Source of the DNA: an uncultured Bacillota bacterium
GTDB lineage: Bacteria; Bacillota_I; Bacilli_A; RF39; UBA660
Reading direction: 5' to 3'
DNA length: 64,000 nucleotides
Assembly: GCA_946630315.1 (NCBI GenBank)
Contig: CAMOYT010000001.1
Coordinates: 895-64,894 of the forward strand
Shown: positions 25,479 through 59,347 of the stretch, one piece after another
Layout: each line of letters starts with the position of its first letter
Numbering within the stretch: the stretch's first letter is position 1
Notes under the pieces: model-generated
The model's input: only the letters and a program-made list of their open reading frames with translations
Told to the model about the DNA's origin: nothing
Databases searched by the model: none
Program-made: the position numbers and the translations under genes

Positions 25479-25602
25479 AAGAGGTAATTATTTTACTTCT
25501 TTTTTTATGTAAAGTCATAAAATATGAATTGTCTTTTTTTGTAAGATGGTTTATACTTGAATATAGAATAGGTGAGCTATTTCATTGGAAGGAGATATTA
25601 AT

Positions 25603-26148
25603 ATGAAGGGTAAAAAGAAAAAGTATTTGAGTGTTATTATTTTATTGCTATTATTAGTTGGTATTACAGTTGGTTATGCTACTTTAAGTTCTAATTTATC
25701 TATTTCTGGTACATCTACTATTAATAGTGCTAGTTGGGATGTTCATTTTGAAAACTTATCAGTTACAGCAGGAAGTGTAGATGCTCTTGAAGACAATGAG
25801 CCTACTATTTCTGCAGATAGTTTAAATATTACATATGGAATTGAGTTAACTCAACCTGGTGATTTTTATGAATTTACTGTAGATGTAAAAAATGCTGGTA
25901 GTGTAGATGCTAGATTAAGTGAATTACCAACACTTGGTGGAGTATCAACTGAACAAGATAAGTATGTAAATTATACATTTACTCATACTGATGGATCTGC
26001 AATAGCTGTTGGTGAAACTTTAGCTGCTGGAGCTTCAAAGAGTTTTAAAGTAAGAGTAGAATTTGATGAGAATGTTTCTTCAACTGATTTACCAAAATCA
26101 AGACAAGATATGACTTTAACAGTTGATATGAATTATGAACAAAAATAA
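25603..26148 (+). CDS. TasA/camelysin (peptidase M73)-family secreted protein with a SipW-type signal peptide (locus A). The track ORF begins at 25585 and includes the RBS.
   Basis: N-terminal KKKK-hydrophobic segment then VGYA|TLSSNLSISG (AXA site). LTQPGDFYEFTVDVKNAGSVDARL matches the TasA LKPGD..F.F.N.GS core. Confidence 0.7.
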   Translation: MKGKKKKYLSVIILLLLLVGITVGYATLSSNLSISGTSTINSASWDVHFENLSVTAGSVDALEDNEPTISADSLNITYGIELTQPGDFYEFTVDVKNAGSVDARLSELPTLGGVSTEQDKYVNYTFTHTDGSAIAVGETLAAGASKSFKVRVEFDENVSSTDLPKSRQDMTLTVDMNYEQK

Positions 26149-26159
26149 TAATAAATTAT

Positions 26160-26195
26160 AAAGAAACTACTATGTAGTTTTCTTTATAATTTTAT
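26160..26195 (+). terminator. Terminator/attenuator after the TasA-like gene.
   Basis: GAAACTACtaTGTAGTTTC hairpin plus T-rich tail. Confidence 0.6.
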
Positions 26196-26250
26196 ATGTT
26201 TATTAGTAATAGTAGGCATATAAAGTTATGAAGAATAATGAGGGATTTAT

Positions 26251-27387
26251 ATGCATAGAAATATAAAAAACATTAGTTTACTACTTATTGTTTTTGTATA
26301 TATTATCTTATATAGATTCTTTATCTTTACTAATTATATGAAAATTTCTGAGATAGTAAGTGCAGCCTTTTTGCTTTTAGTACTTGGTATTGCGATTGGC
26401 TTTTTGGGTATTAGAAAAGATAAAAGGACTATATTGAGGGATAATATTTTTCGTATTGTTATTTTTTATCTTATATTGACCTTTGTAATTATGTTTGGGA
26501 TGGGATTCTTTACTGGATATTTAAAGAATGCTTATTCAAGGTCTAGTTTTACATTATTTGATAATATAGCTGCACCAATATTAATAATTGTTTTTACTGA
26601 ATTGTTTAGATATGTATTTATTGGGGCTAATAAAGATAAGAAAGTATTTATTTATATAATGACTATACTTTTAATTTGTTTAGAGACGGTTATTAGTATA
26701 GGAGTGTTAAAATCATATGATGCTGAAAGTATATTCCATGCTTTTGCTTCAATATTCTTACCTTGTGTGGTTAAGAATATTGTATTAACTTATTTATGTT
26801 ATCATGTTGGATATAAAGTACCTTTATTATATAGATTAGTTGTAGATACTTATATATTCTTTGTACCAATTGTTCCTAATTTGGGAGAATATATTAATTC
26901 AATGATATTTATAAGTTTACCAATACTTATTTATATGAGTTCTTTTGGATTAATTGATGATAGAACTAAGAAGTTGGAACCGGTATTTAATAATGATAAT
27001 TTTACTTTGTTAGATATTCCAATAGCAGCTGTATTAATTATAATGATTTGTTTAATATCAGGATTCTTTACTTATACTATGATGGGTGTTGGATCTGATT
27101 CTATGACTCCTAAGATTAATAAGGGAGATGCTGTTGTGATGAGAAAGATTACTGATAAAACGGTTATTAAGAAAGGTGAAATAGTTGCTTATCAAAAAGA
27201 TAAAAAGGTAATAGTACATAGAGTTTATAAAATAAATAAAAATGGAACTTTTGTTACAAAAGGAGATGCTAATAATACACCTGATAAAAGTGCTGTTAAG
27301 AGAAAGCAAATAAAGGGTGTAGTTAAGTTTAAGATTCCATTTATTGCATATCCTACTTTATGGTTTAATGATTTGATTAATGGATAG
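26251..27387 (+). CDS. Fusion protein (locus A): N-terminal ~260-aa polytopic membrane domain of unknown function plus a C-terminal archaeal/ER-type signal peptidase I (SipW-like).
   Basis: C-terminus GSDSMTPKINKGDAVV...VHRVYK...KGDANNTPD parallels B. subtilis SipW SGSMEP...VTHRIV...KGDNN. It is preceded by ~8 predicted TM helices. Confidence 0.75.
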   Translation: MHRNIKNISLLLIVFVYIILYRFFIFTNYMKISEIVSAAFLLLVLGIAIGFLGIRKDKRTILRDNIFRIVIFYLILTFVIMFGMGFFTGYLKNAYSRSSFTLFDNIAAPILIIVFTELFRYVFIGANKDKKVFIYIMTILLICLETVISIGVLKSYDAESIFHAFASIFLPCVVKNIVLTYLCYHVGYKVPLLYRLVVDTYIFFVPIVPNLGEYINSMIFISLPILIYMSSFGLIDDRTKKLEPVFNNDNFTLLDIPIAAVLIIMICLISGFFTYTMMGVGSDSMTPKINKGDAVVMRKITDKTVIKKGEIVAYQKDKKVIVHRVYKINKNGTFVTKGDANNTPDKSAVKRKQIKGVVKFKIPFIAYPTLWFNDLING

Positions 27388-27398
27388 GAGAAGGAAAT

Positions 27399-28208
27399 AT
27401 GAAAAAGAATGTTTTGGGGTTTATTTTATTAGCAATAGCTTTTATTGTATTAATTCTTGGACTAGTAATGCTTAAGACTAGATTTAATAATTATGCTATT
27501 ATTGCTTATGCTCTAGCAGCAGTAGTTGGCTTTGTAGGATTATATTATATTATTACTAATAGTAATCCTAAGACAGCATATGAGAGTGCAGTTAGAGGAG
27601 TGTTAAATACATATGATTCTGTATTAGTTCAAAGTAATAAAGTACCTAATTTAGATGGTAGAAACATTGTGTATATTGGTACTATAGATGATTTAATTGA
27701 TGCTCAATTAGAAATTAGAAAACCTATTTGTTATGTTAAACAAAGTGAGTCTTGTTCATTTATTTTATTAGATGATAAGGAAGCATTTGTTCATATAATG
27801 AAGCTAAGTCCTGAAGTATTATCTCCTTTAGAAATAGAGATTAAAGAAAATGACTTAAAGGTTAAGAATCAAGATGAGATGGATGCTGAAATGTTAAGAG
27901 AAATTGAGAAGACTACTATTGTTAAGTTGTCTAATCATAAGAGTTATAAAGTATCTCCTATAAGAAAGAAAAAGGAAGAAGAAAAAGTAGAAGATAAGGT
28001 AGAAGAAATAGTTGAAGAACCTGAAGAAGTAAATAAAGAAGTTAAAGAAGAGCCTTATTTTGAAGAACCTTTAATTAGAAAAGAAGAGAATAATGATACT
28101 GAAGAAGTATTAGATGATAAAAAAGAAGAGAATAATGATACTGAAGAAGTATTAGATGATAAGAAAGAAGAAAAAGAAAAAGAAGATGATATAGAAGTAT
28201 TATTCTAG
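27399..28208 (+). CDS. Membrane accessory protein (locus A): two N-terminal TM helices, a conserved ~70-aa domain shared with the 56766 protein, and an acidic C-terminal tail with a tandem repeat.
   Basis: YDSVLVQSN...IDDLIDAQLEIRKPICYVK aligns with the 56766 protein's YDRIIVDTK...FNELVDARDTLGKPIVYEK. A 45-bp tandem repeat encodes EENNDTEEVLDDKKE twice. Confidence 0.55.
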   Translation: MKKNVLGFILLAIAFIVLILGLVMLKTRFNNYAIIAYALAAVVGFVGLYYIITNSNPKTAYESAVRGVLNTYDSVLVQSNKVPNLDGRNIVYIGTIDDLIDAQLEIRKPICYVKQSESCSFILLDDKEAFVHIMKLSPEVLSPLEIEIKENDLKVKNQDEMDAEMLREIEKTTIVKLSNHKSYKVSPIRKKKEEEKVEDKVEEIVEEPEEVNKEVKEEPYFEEPLIRKEENNDTEEVLDDKKEENNDTEEVLDDKKEEKEKEDDIEVLF

Positions 28209-52631: not shown

Positions 52632-52751
52632 ATGAGTAGTACATTAGCTTTAGTATTAATAATTTTATTTGCTGCTTTAGTAGTAGTTGGATGTGTAACA
52701 GCAGGAATTATTATATTAATTAAGTCACTTGATAAAAAGGGTGATAAGTAA
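52632..52751 (+). CDS. Possible small membrane protein (39 aa). Not in the ORF track.
   Basis: RBS GGAAGGTGA, then ATG. MSSTLALVLIILFAALVVVGCVTAGIIILIKSLDKKGDK: a single TM helix plus basic tail. Stop abuts the rimM start. Confidence 0.35.
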   Translation: MSSTLALVLIILFAALVVVGCVTAGIIILIKSLDKKGDK

Positions 52752-53224
52752 TGGATAATATTTATATTGGTAAAATTGTAAGTACTCATGGTATTAAAGG
52801 TGAAGTTAAGATTATTAGTAGTTTTCAATTTAAAGATAAAGTATTTGTCGTTGGTAATAAGTTAATTATTGATGATAAAGAATATACTATTAGAACTTAT
52901 CGTCATCATAAGAATTTTGAGATGGTTACTTTAGATGAATATAATGATATTAATCAAGTATTGTTTTTATTAAGAAAAAAAGTTTATTTTAGAAAAGAAG
53001 ATTTAAAATTAGGTGCTGAAGATATATTAGATAGTGATCTTCTTGGTTACAAGGTATTAACAAATACTAAAGAAGAAGGTATAATAAAGGAAATATTTTA
53101 TGCAAGTCCTAGTAATAAAGTAATTAGAATATTTACTACTAGGGAGTATTTAATACCTTATAGTTTAGTTAAAATAGATAAGGATAAAAAAGAAGTATTT
53201 GTTGAAATAATGGAGGGGATGTAA
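52751..53224 (+). CDS. rimM: Ribosome maturation factor RimM.
   Basis: IGKIVSTHGIKGEVKI N-terminus. Position before trmD. Confidence 0.85.
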   Translation: MDNIYIGKIVSTHGIKGEVKIISSFQFKDKVFVVGNKLIIDDKEYTIRTYRHHKNFEMVTLDEYNDINQVLFLLRKKVYFRKEDLKLGAEDILDSDLLGYKVLTNTKEEGIIKEIFYASPSNKVIRIFTTREYLIPYSLVKIDKDKKEVFVEIMEGM

Positions 53225-53886
53225 TGATAATAGATATACTTACATTATTTCCAGAAATGTATAATGGGGTTTTTACTGAGAGTATTATTAAAAGAGCAGT
53301 AGAAGAAGATAAAGTAAAAATAAATATACATAATTTTAGGGATTATAGTACAGATCCTCATCATAAAGTAGATGATACTCCATATGGTGGAGGAGCAGGT
53401 ATGGTTCTTACTTGTCAACCAATATTTGACTGTGTTAAAAATTTAAGAAAAGAAAATAGTAAAGTAATATTACTTACTCCAGATGGAGTATTATATAAAG
53501 AGAAAATGGCTTATGATTTAAGTCAGGAAAAACATCTAATACTTATTTGTGGTCACTATGAGGGATTTGATGAGAGAATTAGAAGTATATGTGATTTAGA
53601 AATAAGTATTGGAGATTATGTACTTACTGGTGGTGAAATACCTAGTATGGTATTAGTAGATAGTATAGTTAGATTAATTCCTGGAGTTATTGAAGAAGAG
53701 AGTCATTTAAATGATAGTTTTAATGATAATTTGTTAGATTATCCTACTTATACTAAACCTAGAGTATATGAGGGAATGGAAGTTCCTGAAGTATTAGTTT
53801 CAGGAGATCATAAAAGGATTAATGAATTTAGAGAAAATGAAAGATTAAAAAGAACTAAAGAGAGAAGACCAGATTTATTAGATTAG
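53224..53886 (+). CDS. trmD: tRNA (guanine37-N1)-methyltransferase.
   Basis: IIDILTLFPEMY..., ...GHYEGFDERI..., GGEIP motifs. Confidence 0.9.
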   Translation: MIIDILTLFPEMYNGVFTESIIKRAVEEDKVKINIHNFRDYSTDPHHKVDDTPYGGGAGMVLTCQPIFDCVKNLRKENSKVILLTPDGVLYKEKMAYDLSQEKHLILICGHYEGFDERIRSICDLEISIGDYVLTGGEIPSMVLVDSIVRLIPGVIEEESHLNDSFNDNLLDYPTYTKPRVYEGMEVPEVLVSGDHKRINEFRENERLKRTKERRPDLLD

Positions 53887-53896
53887 GAGGAATATT

Positions 53897-54346
53897 ATGT
53901 ATATTCTTGATAAAAAGTATGATAATAAAAATGTAATTATTGATAATACGGAAATATATAATTTACGTGGTTTTCCTATGGGTGATGGAAGAAGTTTCAT
54001 GATACAAGGTAATAGTGTTAGTAATATTAATATTATGAATAGTGAACTTAATCATCCATTAGTTATTAGAAAAGTTTATAATCAATATTCTAGATTAGTT
54101 GAACTAATTACTAATTTATTATTAGATGATAATGACGATGATGGAGCAAGTTATAGAGAGGCATTAAATCAAATAGAGAGATTTAGAATTATCGTTAAAA
54201 ATCAATATAGAGCTTTTTTAGAAAAAGAAGAACTTGCTTTTATGGGTAAACAGTTATCTATATTAAGGCAAGAAGCTGGGGTAAAGCTTATGGAAATACA
54301 AAATAGTTATGATAGATATATGGAGACATCTCGCAGAGGAAAGTGA
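53897..54346 (+). CDS. Hypothetical protein at the proximal edge of TasA/SipW locus B.
   Basis: 149 aa, RBS AGGAGGAA. A terminator hairpin overlaps its 3' end (gagacatctc...gagatgtct plus T6). Confidence 0.45.
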   Translation: MYILDKKYDNKNVIIDNTEIYNLRGFPMGDGRSFMIQGNSVSNINIMNSELNHPLVIRKVYNQYSRLVELITNLLLDDNDDDGASYREALNQIERFRIIVKNQYRAFLEKEELAFMGKQLSILRQEAGVKLMEIQNSYDRYMETSRRGK

Positions 54347-54423
54347 GATGTCTTTTTTAAAATATATTGAAAATGTTTAAAATTAGTGTTATTCTTTTAA
54401 TAGTAAGATAGAGGAGGAATAAT

Positions 54424-54999
54424 ATGGATAGGGCAGAGAGAAATCAAAGAGAAATGCGTATTATTACTGTAGTTGCTTTATGTGTTGCGGTTATTTGTTT
54501 AAGTGTTGCTTATGCTGCAATGAATCAAACTTTAAAAGTATCAGGAGAAGCTAATATGAGAGTTGCAGATTGGAGTATTCATTTTAATAATGTTAATGCT
54601 TCAACTACTGGAGTTGCTACTTATACTATGCCAAATGTTTCTAATACTCAATTAAGTGATTTTGGAGTAGTCCTTACTAAACCAGGTGATTCTGTTACAT
54701 TTACTTTTGATATTGTTAATGATGGTGGTATTAATGCAGTACTTGGTACTCTTACTAAAGGTAAACCTGAATGTAGTAGTTTGACTAGTGATAAAGATGC
54801 TAAAATAGTATGTGATAATCTTATCTATACTTTAGAATATGATAATGGAAGTGCAGTAGAAGTTGGAGATACATTAGATAGTAATACTCATATGAGTGCT
54901 AAATTAAAAATTGCTTATAAAGATGGAGCAAAAGAAGTGCCTGAGTCTACTGTTAATATTAATGGGCTTGATTTAGTTCTTATTTATAACCAAGATTAA
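54424..54999 (+). CDS. TasA/camelysin-family secreted protein with a SipW-type signal peptide (locus B, copy 1).
   Basis: Signal ends VAYA|AMNQTLKVSG. LTKPGDSVTFTFDIVNDGGINAVLG core. Confidence 0.7.
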   Translation: MDRAERNQREMRIITVVALCVAVICLSVAYAAMNQTLKVSGEANMRVADWSIHFNNVNASTTGVATYTMPNVSNTQLSDFGVVLTKPGDSVTFTFDIVNDGGINAVLGTLTKGKPECSSLTSDKDAKIVCDNLIYTLEYDNGSAVEVGDTLDSNTHMSAKLKIAYKDGAKEVPESTVNINGLDLVLIYNQD

Positions 55000-55030
55000 A
55001 GAAAAGAGTTCTTTTCTTTTTTTTTGCTTT
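55000..55030 (+). terminator. Terminator/attenuator between the two TasA-like genes.
   Basis: agaaaagagttcttttct hairpin plus T9. Confidence 0.6.
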
Positions 55031-55063
55031 ATGGTATGATTTATAAAGATAGGAGGAGTACTT

Positions 55064-55639
55064 ATGACAATGGATCGTAGTAGGCGTTTTAAGATTGTTT
55101 CAATCTTTATATTGATAATTGCGGTTATTGGTTTATCTATTGCTTATGCTGCAATGAGTGAAGTTTTAAGTATTTCTGGAACAGCTAAAATGAATAGTGC
55201 TAATTGGAAAATTAAGTTTGAAAATTTGAAAGCTGAAAAAACAGGTGATGCTACTTTTGTAGTACCTACTATTAGTGATACATCTCTTATGAATTATGAA
55301 GTTAATTTAACTAAGCCAGGTGATTCTGTTACATTTACTTTTGATGTTTATAATAATGGTAATATTGATGCAGTACTTGGTACTCTTACTAAAGGAAAAC
55401 CTGAATGTAGTGGAGTTGGTTCTAATGGGGTTAATGATGCTAATATAGTATGTAATAATATTACTTATAATTTAAAATATAGTGATAATAATGTAGTTAA
55501 AGAAGGAGATTCTTTAGAGAAGGGTACTTTTAAAACAATGGTTTTATCTCTGCAATATAATAGTGATTCAACTAGTTTACCTAATGATGATGTTATAGTT
55601 AGAGGGTTAGATATTAATTTAATATATGATCAAGATTAG
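55064..55639 (+). CDS. TasA/camelysin-family secreted protein (locus B, copy 2).
   Basis: Signal ends IAYA|AMSEVLSISG. LTKPGDSVTFTFDVYNNGNIDAVLG core. Paralogous to 54424 and 25603. Confidence 0.7.
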   Translation: MTMDRSRRFKIVSIFILIIAVIGLSIAYAAMSEVLSISGTAKMNSANWKIKFENLKAEKTGDATFVVPTISDTSLMNYEVNLTKPGDSVTFTFDVYNNGNIDAVLGTLTKGKPECSGVGSNGVNDANIVCNNITYNLKYSDNNVVKEGDSLEKGTFKTMVLSLQYNSDSTSLPNDDVIVRGLDINLIYDQD

Positions 55640-55651
55640 GAGTTGATTTTT

Positions 55652-56779
55652 ATGAGAGATGAATCTTCTCGTATTCTACTTATAGAAATTTTACTACTAA
55701 TTGTAAGTTTATGGGGATTATTTACTAGTCAATTTAATTTATTATTATATTTAATTCTATTAATAGTTCCTTTGGTTTTAACTATATATTTATTAGGAGT
55801 AGAAAAAAGAGGGGAAAGGCTAACCAAAGATAGTTTATTAATTCTATTGATTGGTAGTATTAGTTATTACTTAATTACTTATATTATTGGATATTTTAGT
55901 GGCTTCTTAAGAAGTGGATATAGTCATGATTTAGGAAGTATTATTTATAATATTAGTCTTTGGAGTATATTTGTAATAATAATAGAATTTATACGTGGTA
56001 TTATTATAAAAAAAGGTAAATATTATAATAAATTAATATATTTTTCTATATTTGTATTTACAATACTTGAAGTAGTTACTAATATGTCTATATATAATAT
56101 TATTAGTAAGATGGTATTATTTGATACTATATTTAGTGTTATAATACCTATTTTTACTAAGAATTTATTAATGACTTATATTTGTTATCATGCTGATTAT
56201 AAAAATAATATTATTTATAGATTAATTATGGAATTACCTATATATGTAGTTCCTATAATTCCTAATATGGGAGATTATTTAAGAAATCTTATTTTGATGT
56301 TGTTGCCACTAATACTTATTTATTGGCATAATACTAGTTTTTTTAATAGTAGAGAGATTAAAGATGGAAAAAATTTGCATAAGAAATATGTTATAGAGAA
56401 AATTTGTGATATAATGGTTATGATAGTGCTAGTAGTTGTTGTAGTACTTGAAAGTGGTATCTTTAGATTTGTTGCTTTAACAATAGGTAGTGAATCTATG
56501 ACTAGTACAATTAATAAAGGTGATGTAGTTATTATTGATAAGGGTAGTAATAACTATAAGGTAGGAGATATTATTGCTTTTAGAAAGGGTAGTCATATCT
56601 TAGTACATAGAATTGTTTATAAGTCAGAAAATGGATACAATACAAAAGGGGACTTTAATAAAGAAAAGGATAATTGGTTGGTTAAGGAAGACAATATAGT
56701 TGGAAAATATGTTTTTAAAGTTAATTACATAGGTTGGCCAACTGTTAAACTGAATGAATGGTTAAGTGGTGGTGTCTAG
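55652..56779 (+). CDS. Fusion protein (locus B): polytopic membrane domain plus C-terminal SipW-like archaeal/ER-type signal peptidase I. The track ORF begins at 55643.
   Basis: GSESMTSTINKGDVVIID...VHRIVYK...KGDFNKEKD. The N-terminal domain shares KNLLMTYICYHADYK / YRLIMELPIYVVPIIPNMGDY motifs with the 26251 protein. Confidence 0.75.
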   Translation: MRDESSRILLIEILLLIVSLWGLFTSQFNLLLYLILLIVPLVLTIYLLGVEKRGERLTKDSLLILLIGSISYYLITYIIGYFSGFLRSGYSHDLGSIIYNISLWSIFVIIIEFIRGIIIKKGKYYNKLIYFSIFVFTILEVVTNMSIYNIISKMVLFDTIFSVIIPIFTKNLLMTYICYHADYKNNIIYRLIMELPIYVVPIIPNMGDYLRNLILMLLPLILIYWHNTSFFNSREIKDGKNLHKKYVIEKICDIMVMIVLVVVVVLESGIFRFVALTIGSESMTSTINKGDVVIIDKGSNNYKVGDIIAFRKGSHILVHRIVYKSENGYNTKGDFNKEKDNWLVKEDNIVGKYVFKVNYIGWPTVKLNEWLSGGV

Positions 56780-57977
56780 TATGGAAAAATTTAAATTTGT
56801 CAAAGATGAAATTGAATTAGAAAAAGAAGATCAAGCTAGGGAAGAAAAGAAGCAAGAAGCTTTAAAAGCTATAGATGAAAAAGAAGAGACTGAAGTAACT
56901 GAAGTAGTAGAAGAACCAACTGAAGAAGTTGATATTGAAGGGTTTAGAGTTAAGAAACGTCCTTATTTTGGATTTAAGGCAAGAGTATTTTTCTTCTTTA
57001 TAGTTGCTTTACTATTCTTTGTAGGTGGTTGCTATTTCTTAGTTGAATCAGTTGATAAGAGCAAAAGTGATAAAGTTACTTATGATGAGGTAAGTTCTAC
57101 TGCATATCAAGTATGTATGAAGAATGCTAGTCATTATCAAGATACTTGTCAAAAAGAAGGAAGAGCTTATATTTCTGAAGTTGCTAATACAATTGAGTCT
57201 ACATTTAAATATAATGTTAATATTAGTGATGAAATAGAGTATAATGTTAAATACTATATAGAAGCTAAGACTAGTATTTTTGATAAAGATGATAGTACTA
57301 AATTATTATATTCTTCAGCAGAAAACTTAGTAGATAATACTCCTTTAAGTGGAGTTGGTAATAAGATTTCAATACTTGAAGATATTAAAATACCATATAA
57401 AAAGTATAATGACTTTGTATTAAGTTATAAGAGTAAATATGCTATTAATGCTGATGCTAAATTAGATGTTAATTTATATTTAGTAGAAGATGGTAAGAGT
57501 CGTAAGATATCTGGATTAAGTATGGATCTTGGTAGTAAGACATTTAGTATTAAGAAAGCTAATACTACTAATATTAAAAAAGTAGTAGATTTAGAAAATA
57601 ATAGTTGGGATGAATATAATACTGTTTGTTTTGTAGTAGGAGTTATATTATTACTATGTAGTTTATTTGTTATTATTAAACTTAGTAGTTTTGTAAACAA
57701 GGTTATTAATAATAAGAGTAAATATCAAAGAATATTACAAACTATACTTAGAGAATATGATAGAATTATTGTTGATACTAAGGATGGATATATTGTTCCT
57801 GAAGATAAAGTAATATTAGAACTTGATAGTTTTAATGAATTAGTAGATGCTAGAGATACTTTAGGAAAACCAATTGTTTATGAAAAAGTAAATGATGTTA
57901 AGAGTCAATTCTTTGTAGAAGATGATAATAAAGTTTATAAATTTACTTTAAAAGAAGCAGATGTAGATGAAAATTAG
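56766..57977 (+). CDS. Membrane accessory protein (locus B): acidic N-terminus, TM, ~200-aa extracytoplasmic region, second TM, and a C-terminal domain homologous to part of the 27399 protein.
   Basis: TMs at FFFFIVALLFFVGGCYFLV and VCFVVGVILLLCSLFVIIKL. C-terminal domain aligns with 27399 (see that entry). Confidence 0.55.
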   Translation: MVVSSMEKFKFVKDEIELEKEDQAREEKKQEALKAIDEKEETEVTEVVEEPTEEVDIEGFRVKKRPYFGFKARVFFFFIVALLFFVGGCYFLVESVDKSKSDKVTYDEVSSTAYQVCMKNASHYQDTCQKEGRAYISEVANTIESTFKYNVNISDEIEYNVKYYIEAKTSIFDKDDSTKLLYSSAENLVDNTPLSGVGNKISILEDIKIPYKKYNDFVLSYKSKYAINADAKLDVNLYLVEDGKSRKISGLSMDLGSKTFSIKKANTTNIKKVVDLENNSWDEYNTVCFVVGVILLLCSLFVIIKLSSFVNKVINNKSKYQRILQTILREYDRIIVDTKDGYIVPEDKVILELDSFNELVDARDTLGKPIVYEKVNDVKSQFFVEDDNKVYKFTLKEADVDEN

Positions 57978-58000
57978 TTTTCATCTACATTTTTTTATGT
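57969..58000 (+). terminator. Terminator after locus B.
   Basis: gatgaaaa-ttag-ttttcatc hairpin plus T-run. Confidence 0.6.
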
Positions 58001-58031
58001 TATAATATGAAACTATGGAGGGGAAATTATA

Positions 58032-58340
58032 ATGGTTGTAGAGAAAGCAGATCAATTTTTAAACTTACATAGTGAATATGAAAGTAAGTTAGTAGTAATT
58101 AATAGTTATTTTACTAATGCATTAATTAATTTAGAGAGTGATTCTAGTAAGGAAGCTATTTCTAATATGTTTAGAGATTTTTATCAAGTAATTGCTAAAT
58201 TTACTGATGAATTAAATGCTGAAGTAAGTATGGATAAGAAATTAGAGATTGCGCTTAGAAGAGATGCATTTTTAAATAATTTAATAAGTACTTATGGAAT
58301 AGAGTATAATACTAAAGAAAAAAGTGAATTTAAGAAATAA
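58032..58340 (+). CDS. Hypothetical small helical protein.
   Basis: 102 aa, RBS GGAGGGGAA, own promoter (tgttataat). Confidence 0.45.
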   Translation: MVVEKADQFLNLHSEYESKLVVINSYFTNALINLESDSSKEAISNMFRDFYQVIAKFTDELNAEVSMDKKLEIALRRDAFLNNLISTYGIEYNTKEKSEFKK

Positions 58341-58389
58341 ATCGTTGATTTTATTGTGTTTTAGTGTTATAATTTAATTCGTCTAGTGA

Positions 58390-58464
58390 AAACTAGTGCA
58401 GAATGATTCGCTGGTCAGATGATTATAATCATTTCAAGGTATATTTTTAGAGAGGAGAGCTAAT
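58390..58464 (+). promoter_or_regulatory. Putative rplS (L19) leader, with promoter TTGATT-17-TTATAAT at ~58349-58377.
   Basis: Structured ~75-nt leader (ctagtgaaaactag hairpin). Position matches the Firmicutes L19 leader element. Not verified against the model. Confidence 0.35.
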
Positions 58465-58809
58465 ATGAATATTATTGACAAAATCAATGAAAAACAAATT
58501 AATCCTAACGTTCCAGAATTTCGTGTTGGAGATACTGTAAGAGTAGACGTTAAGATTATCGAAGGTAAAAGAGAAAGAATCCAAGCTTTCGAAGGTACAG
58601 TAGTTGCTCGCCGTGGTGGTTCAGTAAGTGAAACATTTACAGTACGTAAAATGTCTAGTGGTATTGGAGTTGAGAGAACTTTCCCAATTCATTCACCAAA
58701 AGTTGCTGGTATCACTGTAGTACGTAAAGGTAAAGTTAGACGTGCTAAACTTAACTTCCTTAAAGGTATGGTTGGCGGATATCGTATTAAAGAAAGAGGA
58801 CAAAAATAA
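58465..58809 (+). CDS. rplS: 50S ribosomal protein L19.
   Basis: ...[32 protein letters not shown]... Confidence 0.9.
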
Positions 58810-58835
58810 GGCCAAAGCCTTATTTTTTTATTAGA
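58808..58835 (+). terminator. Terminator after rplS.
   Basis: aaggccaaagcctt hairpin plus T8. Confidence 0.65.
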
Positions 58836-58843
58836 GGTGTTGT

Positions 58844-59347
58844 ATGGAAGAGAATAAAAAGAAAAGTTTTATTAGAGAATGGGGACCATTTATATTAATA
58901 ATTATTATAATTTTAATTGTAAAGTTTTTTATAGTTACTCCTATTAAAGTAAATGGTGATAGTATGAATCCTACTTTAAAAGATGGAGATATTATGATAC
59001 TTAATAGAATTGATTATAAATTAAATGGTTTAAATAGATTTGATATCGTGGTACTTAAAAAAGATGGAGAATATTTAATTAAACGTGTTATTGGCTTACC
59101 TGGTGAAGAGATTAAATATAAAAATAATAAATTATATATTAATGGGAAATATATAAAAGAGAATTATACTAGAAAAGTAAGTGTTGATATTGATGAAGTA
59201 ATACCTGAAGGTAAATATTATGTTTTAGGTGACAATCGTCTTAACTCACTTGACAGTGAAGAATTTGGTCCGGTTAGTGGTAGTAAAATACTAGGTAAAA
59301 CTAAACTAACTTTATTTCCATTTAAACATTTCGGTAATAAGAAGTAA
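58844..59347 (+). CDS. lepB: Signal peptidase I (bacterial S26 type).
   Basis: NGDSMNPTLKDGD (catalytic Ser) and IKRVIGLPGE (Lys) boxes. 167 aa. Confidence 0.85.
   Translation: MEENKKKSFIREWGPFILIIIIILIVKFFIVTPIKVNGDSMNPTLKDGDIMILNRIDYKLNGLNRFDIVVLKKDGEYLIKRVIGLPGEEIKYKNNKLYINGKYIKENYTRKVSVDIDEVIPEGKYYVLGDNRLNSLDSEEFGPVSGSKILGKTKLTLFPFKHFGNKK

Follow-up and report, generated by a model that had tools for sequence, protein, structure and literature searches.

A subunit, fusion signal peptidase and DUF5305 gene cluster between trmD and rplS of an uncultured Bacillota bacterium, probably an AbpX-type filament locus

What are two small exported proteins, a signal peptidase of their own and a DUF5305 protein doing between trmD and rplS, next to core translation genes? 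We analysed this arrangement in a stretch of 64,000 nt of contig CAMOYT010000001.1 (assembly GCA_946630315.1) from an uncultured Bacillota bacterium, which is called the window below. On its + strand, positions 52751-59347 hold in this order rimM, trmD, an open reading frame (ORF) of 149 aa, two ORFs of 191 aa, one of 378 aa, one of 403 aa, one of 102 aa, rplS and lepB. The cluster in question (module B or locus B, 54424-57977) consists of the genes for subunit 1 (191 aa, 54424-54999), subunit 2 (191 aa, 55064-55639), a fusion peptidase (55643-56779) and a DUF5305 protein (56766-57977), all on the + strand and at the coordinates noted in an earlier, sequence-only reading of this DNA. A diverged second copy, locus A, lies at 25585-28208. 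Profile hidden Markov model (HMM) scans of the window ORFs recovered three subunit genes, two fusion peptidases and no more of either, and the observation of a two-subunit, peptidase and DUF5305 cluster with a diverged second copy is confirmed.

The cluster is probably a self-contained transcription unit whose products build a filament or a matrix polymer and rely on a signal peptidase of their own; within the TasA superfamily it would belong to the AbpX type. Systems of this kind, TasA-superfamily filament loci with a dedicated polytopic signal peptidase I (SPase I) and a DUF5305 protein, were already described in 2025-2026. This cluster diverges from them in a subunit clade beyond BLAST reach from AbpX and devoid of its N-terminal signature, a peptidase with nine transmembrane (TM) helices, not ten, and the minimal gene set.

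The subunits and their remote relatives

In both locus-B subunits, a basic N-terminus precedes a hydrophobic stretch of about 19 residues and an AYA/A site (the slash marks the predicted cut), the same site that the sequence-only reading had assigned to them. Cleavage there would leave mature chains of 160-162 aa with an isoelectric point (pI) of 4.45-4.50 and one Cys pair each. Subunit 1 (mature pI 4.50, 12.5 % D+E) combines an amphipathic, donor-strand-like N-terminus, AMNQTLKVSGEANM, with an acidic beta-sandwich core of 160 aa that holds the Cys pair. Together with the locus A subunit, the three mature window subunits span 155-162 aa, pI 4.17-4.50 and 12.5-15.5 % D+E, which makes them small acidic proteins like AbpX (163 aa, pI about 4, about 15 % D/E; bioRxiv 10.64898/2026.01.04.697558).

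The predicted mature N-terminus of subunit 2, AMSEVLSISGTA (A-M-S-E-V-L-S-I-S-G-T-A), aligns with x-W-S-E-T-L-S-L-S-A-T-I of AbpX, where the donor strand spans W2-I12 (bioRxiv 10.64898/2026.01.04.697558), and this alignment supports the AYA/A cleavage register. The AlphaFold 2 (AF2) model of subunit 2, with a mean predicted local distance difference test (pLDDT) of 86.5, shows a TM helix at residues 5-35, a low-confidence segment at about 35-48 and a beta-sandwich from residue 50. The segment that follows the cleavage site is unpacked and of low confidence in the monomer, as a donor strand would be. Right behind the cleavage site, 135 sequences of the family show an alternating L-x-I-x-G-x-A pattern with hardly any variation. 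The pairing of an aromatic amino acid in position 2 with an acidic one in position 4, tied in AbpX to calcium-mediated assembly (bioRxiv 10.64898/2026.01.04.697558), is not conserved in the family consensus; the predicted mature N-termini read AMNQ (M2/Q4) in subunit 1, AMSE (M2/E4) in subunit 2 and TLSS (L2/S4) in the locus A subunit.

Regarding the family of the subunits, the sequence-only reading had called them TasA-like. This probably stands at the superfamily level, through the link to AbpX described below, but not at the level of TasA itself. Direct membership in TasA was rejected, with nothing above threshold by Pfam, NCBIfam, phmmer and hmmsearch against PDB, or hhalign, where the window family and TasA reached a probability of 15-25 % (the TasA sequence used here is identical to 8aur). 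PF12389/Peptidase_M73 and the TasA model NF046066 gave no match at E <= 0.1 for the three window subunits, the model of the SipW-type signal peptide, TIGR04088, did not match them, and no Pfam or NCBIfam family scored above threshold. Of 135 family members, 49 have sub-threshold matches to PF12389 (best 1.6e-4), one subunit of a Peptococcaceae locus (L025) passes TIGR04088 with 23.8 bits against a cutoff of 19, and a PGD...N.G motif is common to the window subunits and TasA.

The link to AbpX was found through related loci. A scan with one genome per species and a query alignment of 15 closer sequences returned 28 loci, among them those of a Desulfurococcales archaeon (L023), a Thermoplasmatales archaeon (L024), the Peptococcaceae metagenome-assembled genome (MAG; L025) and an actinobacterial MAG (L026). 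The subunits beside the L023-L026 peptidases start with xW(S/T)D-x-L-x-(I/V)-x-G and end in QWN; one of them, L023:5424-5984, stands beside the L023 peptidase and matches the solved AbpX of P. abyssi (9sj2_C, E 6.7e-5). As a set they align with AbpX at an hhalign probability of 97.5 % (E 7.7e-12). The window family in turn aligns with this set at 96-98 % over the full length including the signal peptide (E 1e-9 to 5e-12) and at 75.5 % over the mature part only (E 2.4e-5, 142 columns), and with AbpX residues 1-150, rebuilt from the printed PDB alignments, at 88 % (E 3e-6). These profile comparisons point to a remote homology of the window subunits to AbpX-type subunits, with likeness to TasA at the superfamily level only, and this homology is part of the explanation that we consider probable as a whole.

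Could the subunits instead be ordinary secreted or surface beta-sandwich proteins, for example adhesins, binding modules or wall-associated proteins, which have a private peptidase and form no polymer? Fold searches with the subunits yielded only generic beta-sandwich matches, immunoglobulin-like (Ig-like) or like carbohydrate-binding modules (CBM-like), with TasA (8aur) at a Foldseek E of 0.077, and the modelled fold cannot by itself decide the subunit family. The central PGD...N.G region also matches repeats of giant surface proteins of 3000-6000 aa (P0147, P0149, P0157) and DUF11/DUF7507, and neither a tip nor an anchor gene is present in the window. Against such a role, the remote AbpX-type homology runs along the full length of the mature chain, taking in both the N-terminal strand and the terminal one with Y-x-Q or QWN, and the pattern after the cleavage site is nearly invariant. 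Loci with two to five subunit genes, long proteins headed by subunit-like domains, and the combination of a dedicated peptidase with DUF5305, a published hallmark of Tafi and AbpX filament loci, also speak for subunits of a polymer. We consider the non-polymeric role unlikely, though it deserves to be kept in mind, and favour the filament.

A search of 1.84 billion representatives with the subunit profile retrieved 8061 clusters at E <= 1e-3; at E <= 1e-30 there were 632. The top matches are for the most part full-length proteins of about 190 aa, and some are proteins of 320-2180 aa with the domain at the N-terminus. The count is inflated, because giant repeat proteins match the central PGD...N.G region alone: P0147, P0149, P0157 and P0258 (2956-5970 aa) carry 19-35 repeats that match this part only. 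Judged by these alignments, the subunit core is related to a common adhesin repeat. The family has neither a Pfam family nor an annotation, and defining it would improve the annotation of thousands of metagenomic proteins.

The fusion peptidase and its DUF5305 partner

The 378-aa ORF of the peptidase has a probable start at ATG 55652, which gives a protein of 375 aa and agrees with a database homologue (P0001) and with the gene call in L030, a locus of the same species. About 250 residues at its N-terminus are polytopic membrane helices, and the last 120 residues are a signal peptidase I of the archaeal or endoplasmic reticulum (ER) type. The TIGR02228 model (S26B) scored 73.4 bits for the locus-B enzyme and 82.9 bits for that of locus A, with the cutoff at 51.85. 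All 34 homologues keep the Ser of GSxSM, the His of VHR and both Asp of TKGDxNxxxD, which here are the catalytic residues S285, H322, D337 and D343. By its sequence, the fusion peptidase is an intact S26B enzyme with a Ser-His and not a Ser-Lys set. The same residues make it hardly credible that the fusion is a SipA/LepA-like chaperone of sortase-assembled pili, since SipA lacks catalytic residues while Ser, His and Asp are invariant here; moreover, the cluster holds no sortase and no LPXTG subunit.

In the AF2 model of the peptidase (pLDDT 88), an N-terminal domain of eight membrane helices (55652-56398) is followed by a ninth TM helix and the extracellular peptidase domain with Ser, His and Asp (56399-56779). 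The modelled N-domain matches the CPBP/CAAX-protease superfamily, with an eight-helix, Rce1-like fold, and its best structural match is SpdC. Eight helices and the TM anchor add up to nine, so that the enzyme is a polytopic SPase I like those of AbpX loci. What the N-domain conserves across bacteria and archaea is limited to a Gly motif where helix 3 ends on the outer side, ExxR in helix 4 and PxxP in an outer loop; the fusion peptidases of L023-L026 align with the window N-domain and have the invariant G, ExxR and Pro in common with it. We infer that helix 4 with its ExxR corresponds to the helix that bears EExxxR in Rce1. No His of the N-domain is conserved in the 34 homologues and L023-L026, and therefore the canonical CPBP catalytic set (EExxxR, FxxxH, HxxxN/D) is absent, ExxR alone being kept.

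An active intramembrane protease in this position might, for instance, remove signal peptides once they are cut off or shorten the precursors at their cytoplasmic N-region, and the fusion would be a two-protease machine. We find this improbable. Conserved counterparts are missing both for the His of motif 2 (FxxxH) and for the His/Asn of motif 3 (HxxxN), the best structural match SpdC is non-catalytic, and the S. aureus homologues with degenerate motifs, SpbR, SpdC and LnsB, are non-proteolytic (PMC12260438). The structural model suggests instead a CPBP-like domain with degenerate motifs, in parallel to SpbR and SpsB. SpbR is a degenerate-motif CAAX-protease homologue that binds the signal peptidase SpsB via the TM helix and the ectodomain and modulates cleavage (PMC12260438), and SpdC plays an equivalent role for the hydrolase SagB (PMC12260438; bioRxiv 10.1101/2020.05.21.109470). 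In S. aureus, SpbR/SpsB and SpdC/SagB are pairs of unfused proteins, and the SPase that SpbR inhibits is a housekeeping one, whereas the window domains are fused and the SPase is a dedicated one of archaeal type.

We found no similarity of the N-domain to SpbR or SpdC at the sequence level, either with Pfam on 34 members or with the profile against PDB. A regex search of the window and the related loci for canonical CPBP proteins, from which a comparison profile was to be built, was unsuccessful. One search for stand-alone homologues of the N-domain found none either; its matches are proteins of about 370-450 aa that carry a signal peptidase or are annotated as such, apart from two short and probably truncated sequences. 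The text of the AbpX preprint notes a ten-TM SPase I and does not mention a relationship to CAAX or CPBP proteins (bioRxiv 10.64898/2026.01.04.697558), and a full-text literature search for SipW together with CPBP returned nothing. As far as we found, the assignment of the membrane domain to the CPBP fold and the parallel to SpbR-SpsB are new to the searchable literature.

The last gene of the cluster, a 403-aa ORF at 56766-57977, has a probable start at ATG 56781, placed as in the gene call of L030, and encodes a DUF5305 protein of 398 aa (PF17231, 2.3e-11). It has an acidic cytoplasmic N-terminus, a first TM helix at residues 74-92, an ectodomain of about 190 aa, a second TM helix at 286-304 and a cytoplasmic C-terminal domain.

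From these parts we propose the following mechanism. The two acidic beta-sandwich subunits of about 17 kDa would be exported by Sec and stay tethered to the membrane via their uncleaved N-terminal signal anchor. The archaeal/ER-type signal peptidase of the cluster would cut after AYA and free the amphipathic N-terminal strand, which would then enter an adjacent subunit's open beta-sandwich, by donor-strand complementation, and so build extracellular fibres. The CPBP-like domain would act as a non-catalytic scaffold that docks the TM helix of the peptidase and selects or gates cognate signal anchors, as a one-chain counterpart to the S. aureus complexes SpbR-SpsB and SpdC-SagB, and the DUF5305 protein may be an accessory subunit of the peptidase.

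The filament reading is favoured because the peptidase and its DUF5305 partner match the set described at AbpX and Tafi loci. At AbpX loci, the SPase I has ten TM helices and is accompanied by a DUF5305 accessory protein (bioRxiv 10.64898/2026.01.04.697558). Like the loci of P. abyssi and its bacterial and archaeal homologues, the cluster combines an acidic subunit of about 160 aa, an amphipathic strand right after the SPase I site, more than one subunit paralogue in a locus, a polytopic SPase I of its own and a DUF5305 protein, and the N-domain of its peptidase aligns with peptidases of those archaeal loci whose subunits match AbpX. Unlike AbpX, the window subunits are beyond the reach of BLAST and HMMER, have lost the aromatic-2/acidic-4 signature or kept it in part, and end in Y-x-Q in place of QWN. 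The window peptidase has nine TM helices and no C-terminal tenth, an anchor or regulator gene is missing, and the host belongs to uncultured low-GC gut Bacilli.

In haloarchaeal Tafi pili (TafA/E, TafD, TafG), the peptidase TafD is needed for pilin processing, as seen by deletion and complementation (PMC11821415), and TafG is a DUF5305 protein (PMC11821415; PMC12337348). The cluster shares with them the dedicated S26 peptidase, the DUF5305 partner and, as we propose, donor-strand subunits. In contrast to the window, Tafi subunits use signals for twin-arginine translocation (Tat) and Tafi loci carry regulator and tip genes (PMC11821415, PMC12337348), while TafD has four TM helices with an extra C-terminal domain and no N-terminal CPBP-like domain. 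The tapA-sipW-tasA operon of B. subtilis also places an archaeal-type signal peptidase beside a fibre subunit, cleavage exposes the donor strand of TasA, and the PGD...N.G motif is shared. It differs from the window in that SipW is small, with two TM helices and no CPBP-like domain; the window lacks TapA, and its subunits do not match the TasA models (PF12389, TIGR04088). The tapA-sipW-tasA operon is not known to include a DUF5305 gene.

Several results weigh against an AbpX-type filament with a CPBP-like gate. None of the curated TasA, camelysin and SipW-signal models reached threshold for the window subunits. The hhalign probabilities of 75-88 % for the mature part are below the usual comfort level of 95 %, the higher full-length score includes the signal peptide, and with HMMER the family profile reached AbpX in PDB with an E of only 0.36. 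The cluster contains no gene for an anchor, a sortase or a regulator. On the side of the peptidase, Pfam (34 members) and the profile search of PDB gave no link to CPBP at the sequence level, the assignment being one of fold only, and the retained motif is ExxR rather than EExxxR.

A bolder proposal, which we put forward tentatively and which has a lesser chance of being right, is that the fusion peptidase and the DUF5305 protein by themselves make up the whole machinery that assembles a donor-strand filament without a chaperone. The CPBP domain would be an SpbR-like gate that holds the uncleaved, fibre-tethering anchor of the newest subunit and permits cleavage only once the next precursor has docked. 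The subunits of about 190 aa would then form a pilin-like clade, very large and spread over gut Bacilli and further uncultured lineages, with some 8000 clusters at 50 % identity and E <= 1e-3 (generic repeat proteins among them) and no Pfam family.

Should the subunits polymerise, a minimal cluster of four genes, adjoining core translation genes, would let uncultured low-GC Bacilli of the gut, represented by MAGs of rabbit, goat, sheep and other hosts, make AbpX/TasA-type fibres, which would bear on gut adhesion and biofilm formation. The fusion of a CAAX-protease fold with a signal peptidase may serve as a natural 'Rosetta stone' for the SpbR-SpsB interaction, itself a recent discovery, and suggests a general role of degenerate CPBP proteins as partners of signal peptidases or as their regulators. 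The cluster also offers a compact system in which to probe the coupling of peptidase cleavage to donor-strand assembly.

The trmD-rplS location and the second copy

The window proteins and HMMs were mapped onto the 28 related loci, and a cassette of one to five subunit genes, a fusion peptidase and a DUF5305 gene was recognised in at least 22 of them. Most come from uncultured Bacilli MAGs of rabbit, goat, sheep and similar guts; beyond Bacilli the cassette occurs at L023-L026, where the L026 contig ends before the position at which a DUF5305 gene could appear. Some related loci also hold proteins of 540-824 aa with the same signal anchor, an N-terminal subunit-like domain and large C-terminal regions (L011:10858-12870, L013:10235-12709, L014:9035-10777, L015:3234-4856 and L019:10780-14254). 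They look like candidate tip or adhesin subunits, and a long protein of this kind is absent from the window.

The sequence-only reading had described the module as inserted between trmD and rplS. At least five further species-level MAGs share the arrangement. In L002, L004, L006 and L008 the order is exactly that of the window, the cassette standing between rplS-lepB and a trmD that is followed by a counterpart of the 149-aa gene, and in L005, whose contig is cut on the trmD side, the rplS-lepB side of the cassette is visible. The orthologues in these loci are 73-82 % identical to the window for TrmD and 88-93 % for L19, and only 41-51 % for the peptidase. The GC content inside the module (0.22-0.29) shows no anomaly against the surroundings (0.24-0.30), and no flanking repeats, transposase or integrase were found around it, in agreement with the sequence-only reading on the lack of a transposase and of repeats.

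A recently acquired island in the trmD-rplS operon of this genome might be suspected, since rplS directly follows trmD in B. subtilis and since the module has promoter-like and terminator-like sites of its own. This is very improbable: the same position and order recur in at least five species whose peptidases have diverged as far as stated above, and neither a GC shift nor repeats nor an integrase marks the module. The synteny in related species, the matching GC content and the lack of flanking repeats place the cluster at this site already in the common ancestor of these species. The trmD-rplS placement is ancestral in the clade and predates the divergence of the related species, although it is not universal in Bacilli, and within the clade the notion of an insertion falls to the refuting condition that the sequence-only reading itself had set. 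Its position inside the rimM-trmD-rplS neighbourhood is unusual but clade-conserved, and the genome has a second, old paralogue.

This paralogue, which stands in a glyQS context, consists of a subunit gene (187-aa ORF, 25585-26148, +; GYA/T site, no Cys pair), a peptidase fusion of 378 aa (26251-27387, +) of a second subtype and a DUF5305-related gene (27399-28208, +; PF17231 4.8e-10, profile positions 118-214 only). Pairwise alignment bore out the claim that the three-part architecture is repeated at a distance of some 26 kb and that the fusion peptidases share both the membrane and the catalytic domain (31 % identity over 347 aa, E 2e-55). The three subunits were likewise found homologous, with 48 % identity between subunits 1 and 2 (E 6e-65) and 29 % between a locus-B subunit and that of locus A (E 1e-19). 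The DUF5305 proteins have only the C-terminal cytoplasmic domain in common (26 % over 84 aa, E 8e-6). On these alignments, the paralogy of the loci is far beyond chance.

In a neighbour-joining tree of 50 fusion peptidases, computed without bootstrap support, the locus-B enzyme groups with the trmD-rplS orthologues and the locus-A enzyme with P0103, L014_11483, L019_2514 and L020_2495. In L014, L019 and L020 the locus-A subtype stands in tandem with a module of another subtype. Because the two copies fall in two subtypes that co-occur in other genomes, we regard A and B as old paralogues; the tree fits two old peptidase subtypes kept together and, as the sequence-only reading had proposed, an old duplication with specialisation.

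The DUF5305-related protein of locus A lacks the whole ectodomain and consists of a TM hairpin, with helices about 10 residues apart, a cytoplasmic domain and a long acidic C-terminal tail with two copies of the tandem repeat KKEENNDTEEVLDD. Relatives of the same subtype have about 340-350 aa (L014:12628-13686, L019:3680-4708). Between the two locus-B subunit genes, a stretch of 119 nt (54659-54777 and 55293-55411) that covers the LTKPGDSVTFTFD...N.G core is 86 % identical, against 48 % identity of the proteins overall, which suggests gene conversion or strong constraint. About 1.5 kb 3' of locus A starts a gene for a protein of 1521 aa (29745-34310) that by eye resembles an EssC ATPase of the FtsK/SpoIIIE type (type VII secretion), and a T-box leader (RF00230, 105 bits) lies at 35821-36013.

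Transcription signals and flanking genes

Upstream of subunit 1, a consensus scan and reading of the sequence gave a promoter-like site, TTGAAA-17-TATTCT with TG, at 54367-54395 (+). The promoter-like sites of the region are consensus matches only and are not enriched over shuffles, whereas terminator-like sites number three against 0.7 expected in shuffles. A terminator-like hairpin with a T-run was read at about 54320-54352 (+), at the end of the 149-aa gene and before the promoter-like site of the module. A hairpin that resembles an intrinsic terminator, with 15 pairs and a T-run, lies at 57959-57992 (+); it overlaps the stop codon of the DUF5305 gene and marks the 3' end of the module transcription unit. 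Since the 149-aa gene ends in a hairpin, a promoter-like site precedes subunit 1 and a terminator-like hairpin closes the DUF5305 gene, the module at 54424-57977 looks like a transcription unit of its own. Just 3' of subunit 1, an AT-rich weak hairpin with a T-run (54992-55025, +; inverted repeat I18, direct repeat D3) may be a partial terminator that raises subunit 1 relative to the downstream genes, and because of this hairpin subunit 1 is possibly the major subunit.

The flanking genes are rimM (52751-53224, +; checked with Pfam) and trmD (53224-53886, +; PF01746, 6e-65) on one side and rplS (58465-58809, +; PF01245, 4e-43) and lepB (58844-59347, +; TIGR02227, 2e-45) on the other. The gene for the 149-aa cytoplasmic protein (53897-54346, +) begins 10 nt 3' of trmD, is closed by the hairpin and T-run, and occurs only in the trmD context. 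Its homologues (L002:5132-5578, L004:4452-4892, L006:3793-4239, L008:4969-5406; 43-48 % identity) stand right after trmD, and one is present in every relative that carries the module at trmD. The protein had no family match, and the gene probably groups with the trmD operon rather than with the module. The 102-aa ORF (58032-58340, +), located between the terminator-like hairpin of the module and rplS, has its own promoter-like site; it had no family match and no homologue in the loci of related species, the only other copy found being in L030. The interval between the DUF5305 gene and rplS is variable, and L004 has an ORF of 299 aa there instead. The insert of about 4.5 kb (53897-58340) described in the sequence-only reading thus does contain the cluster, but its first gene probably belongs with trmD and its last one is seen only in contigs of the same species.

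A promoter and leader of rplS had also been claimed, as acquired. The region 58345-58464 (+) indeed contains a promoter-like site, TTGATT-17-TATAAT with TG, and a structured leader, both conserved, but their acquisition is unproven, as B. subtilis rplS has a leader too (Rfam L19_leader). The Rfam L19_leader model did not match upstream of rplS in the window, even at E <= 10. In an alignment of the window with L002, L004, L005, L006 and L008, the leader of about 90 nt (58374-58464) has a hairpin conserved in all six species with four compensatory pairs, and it may be a divergent L19 autoregulatory leader.

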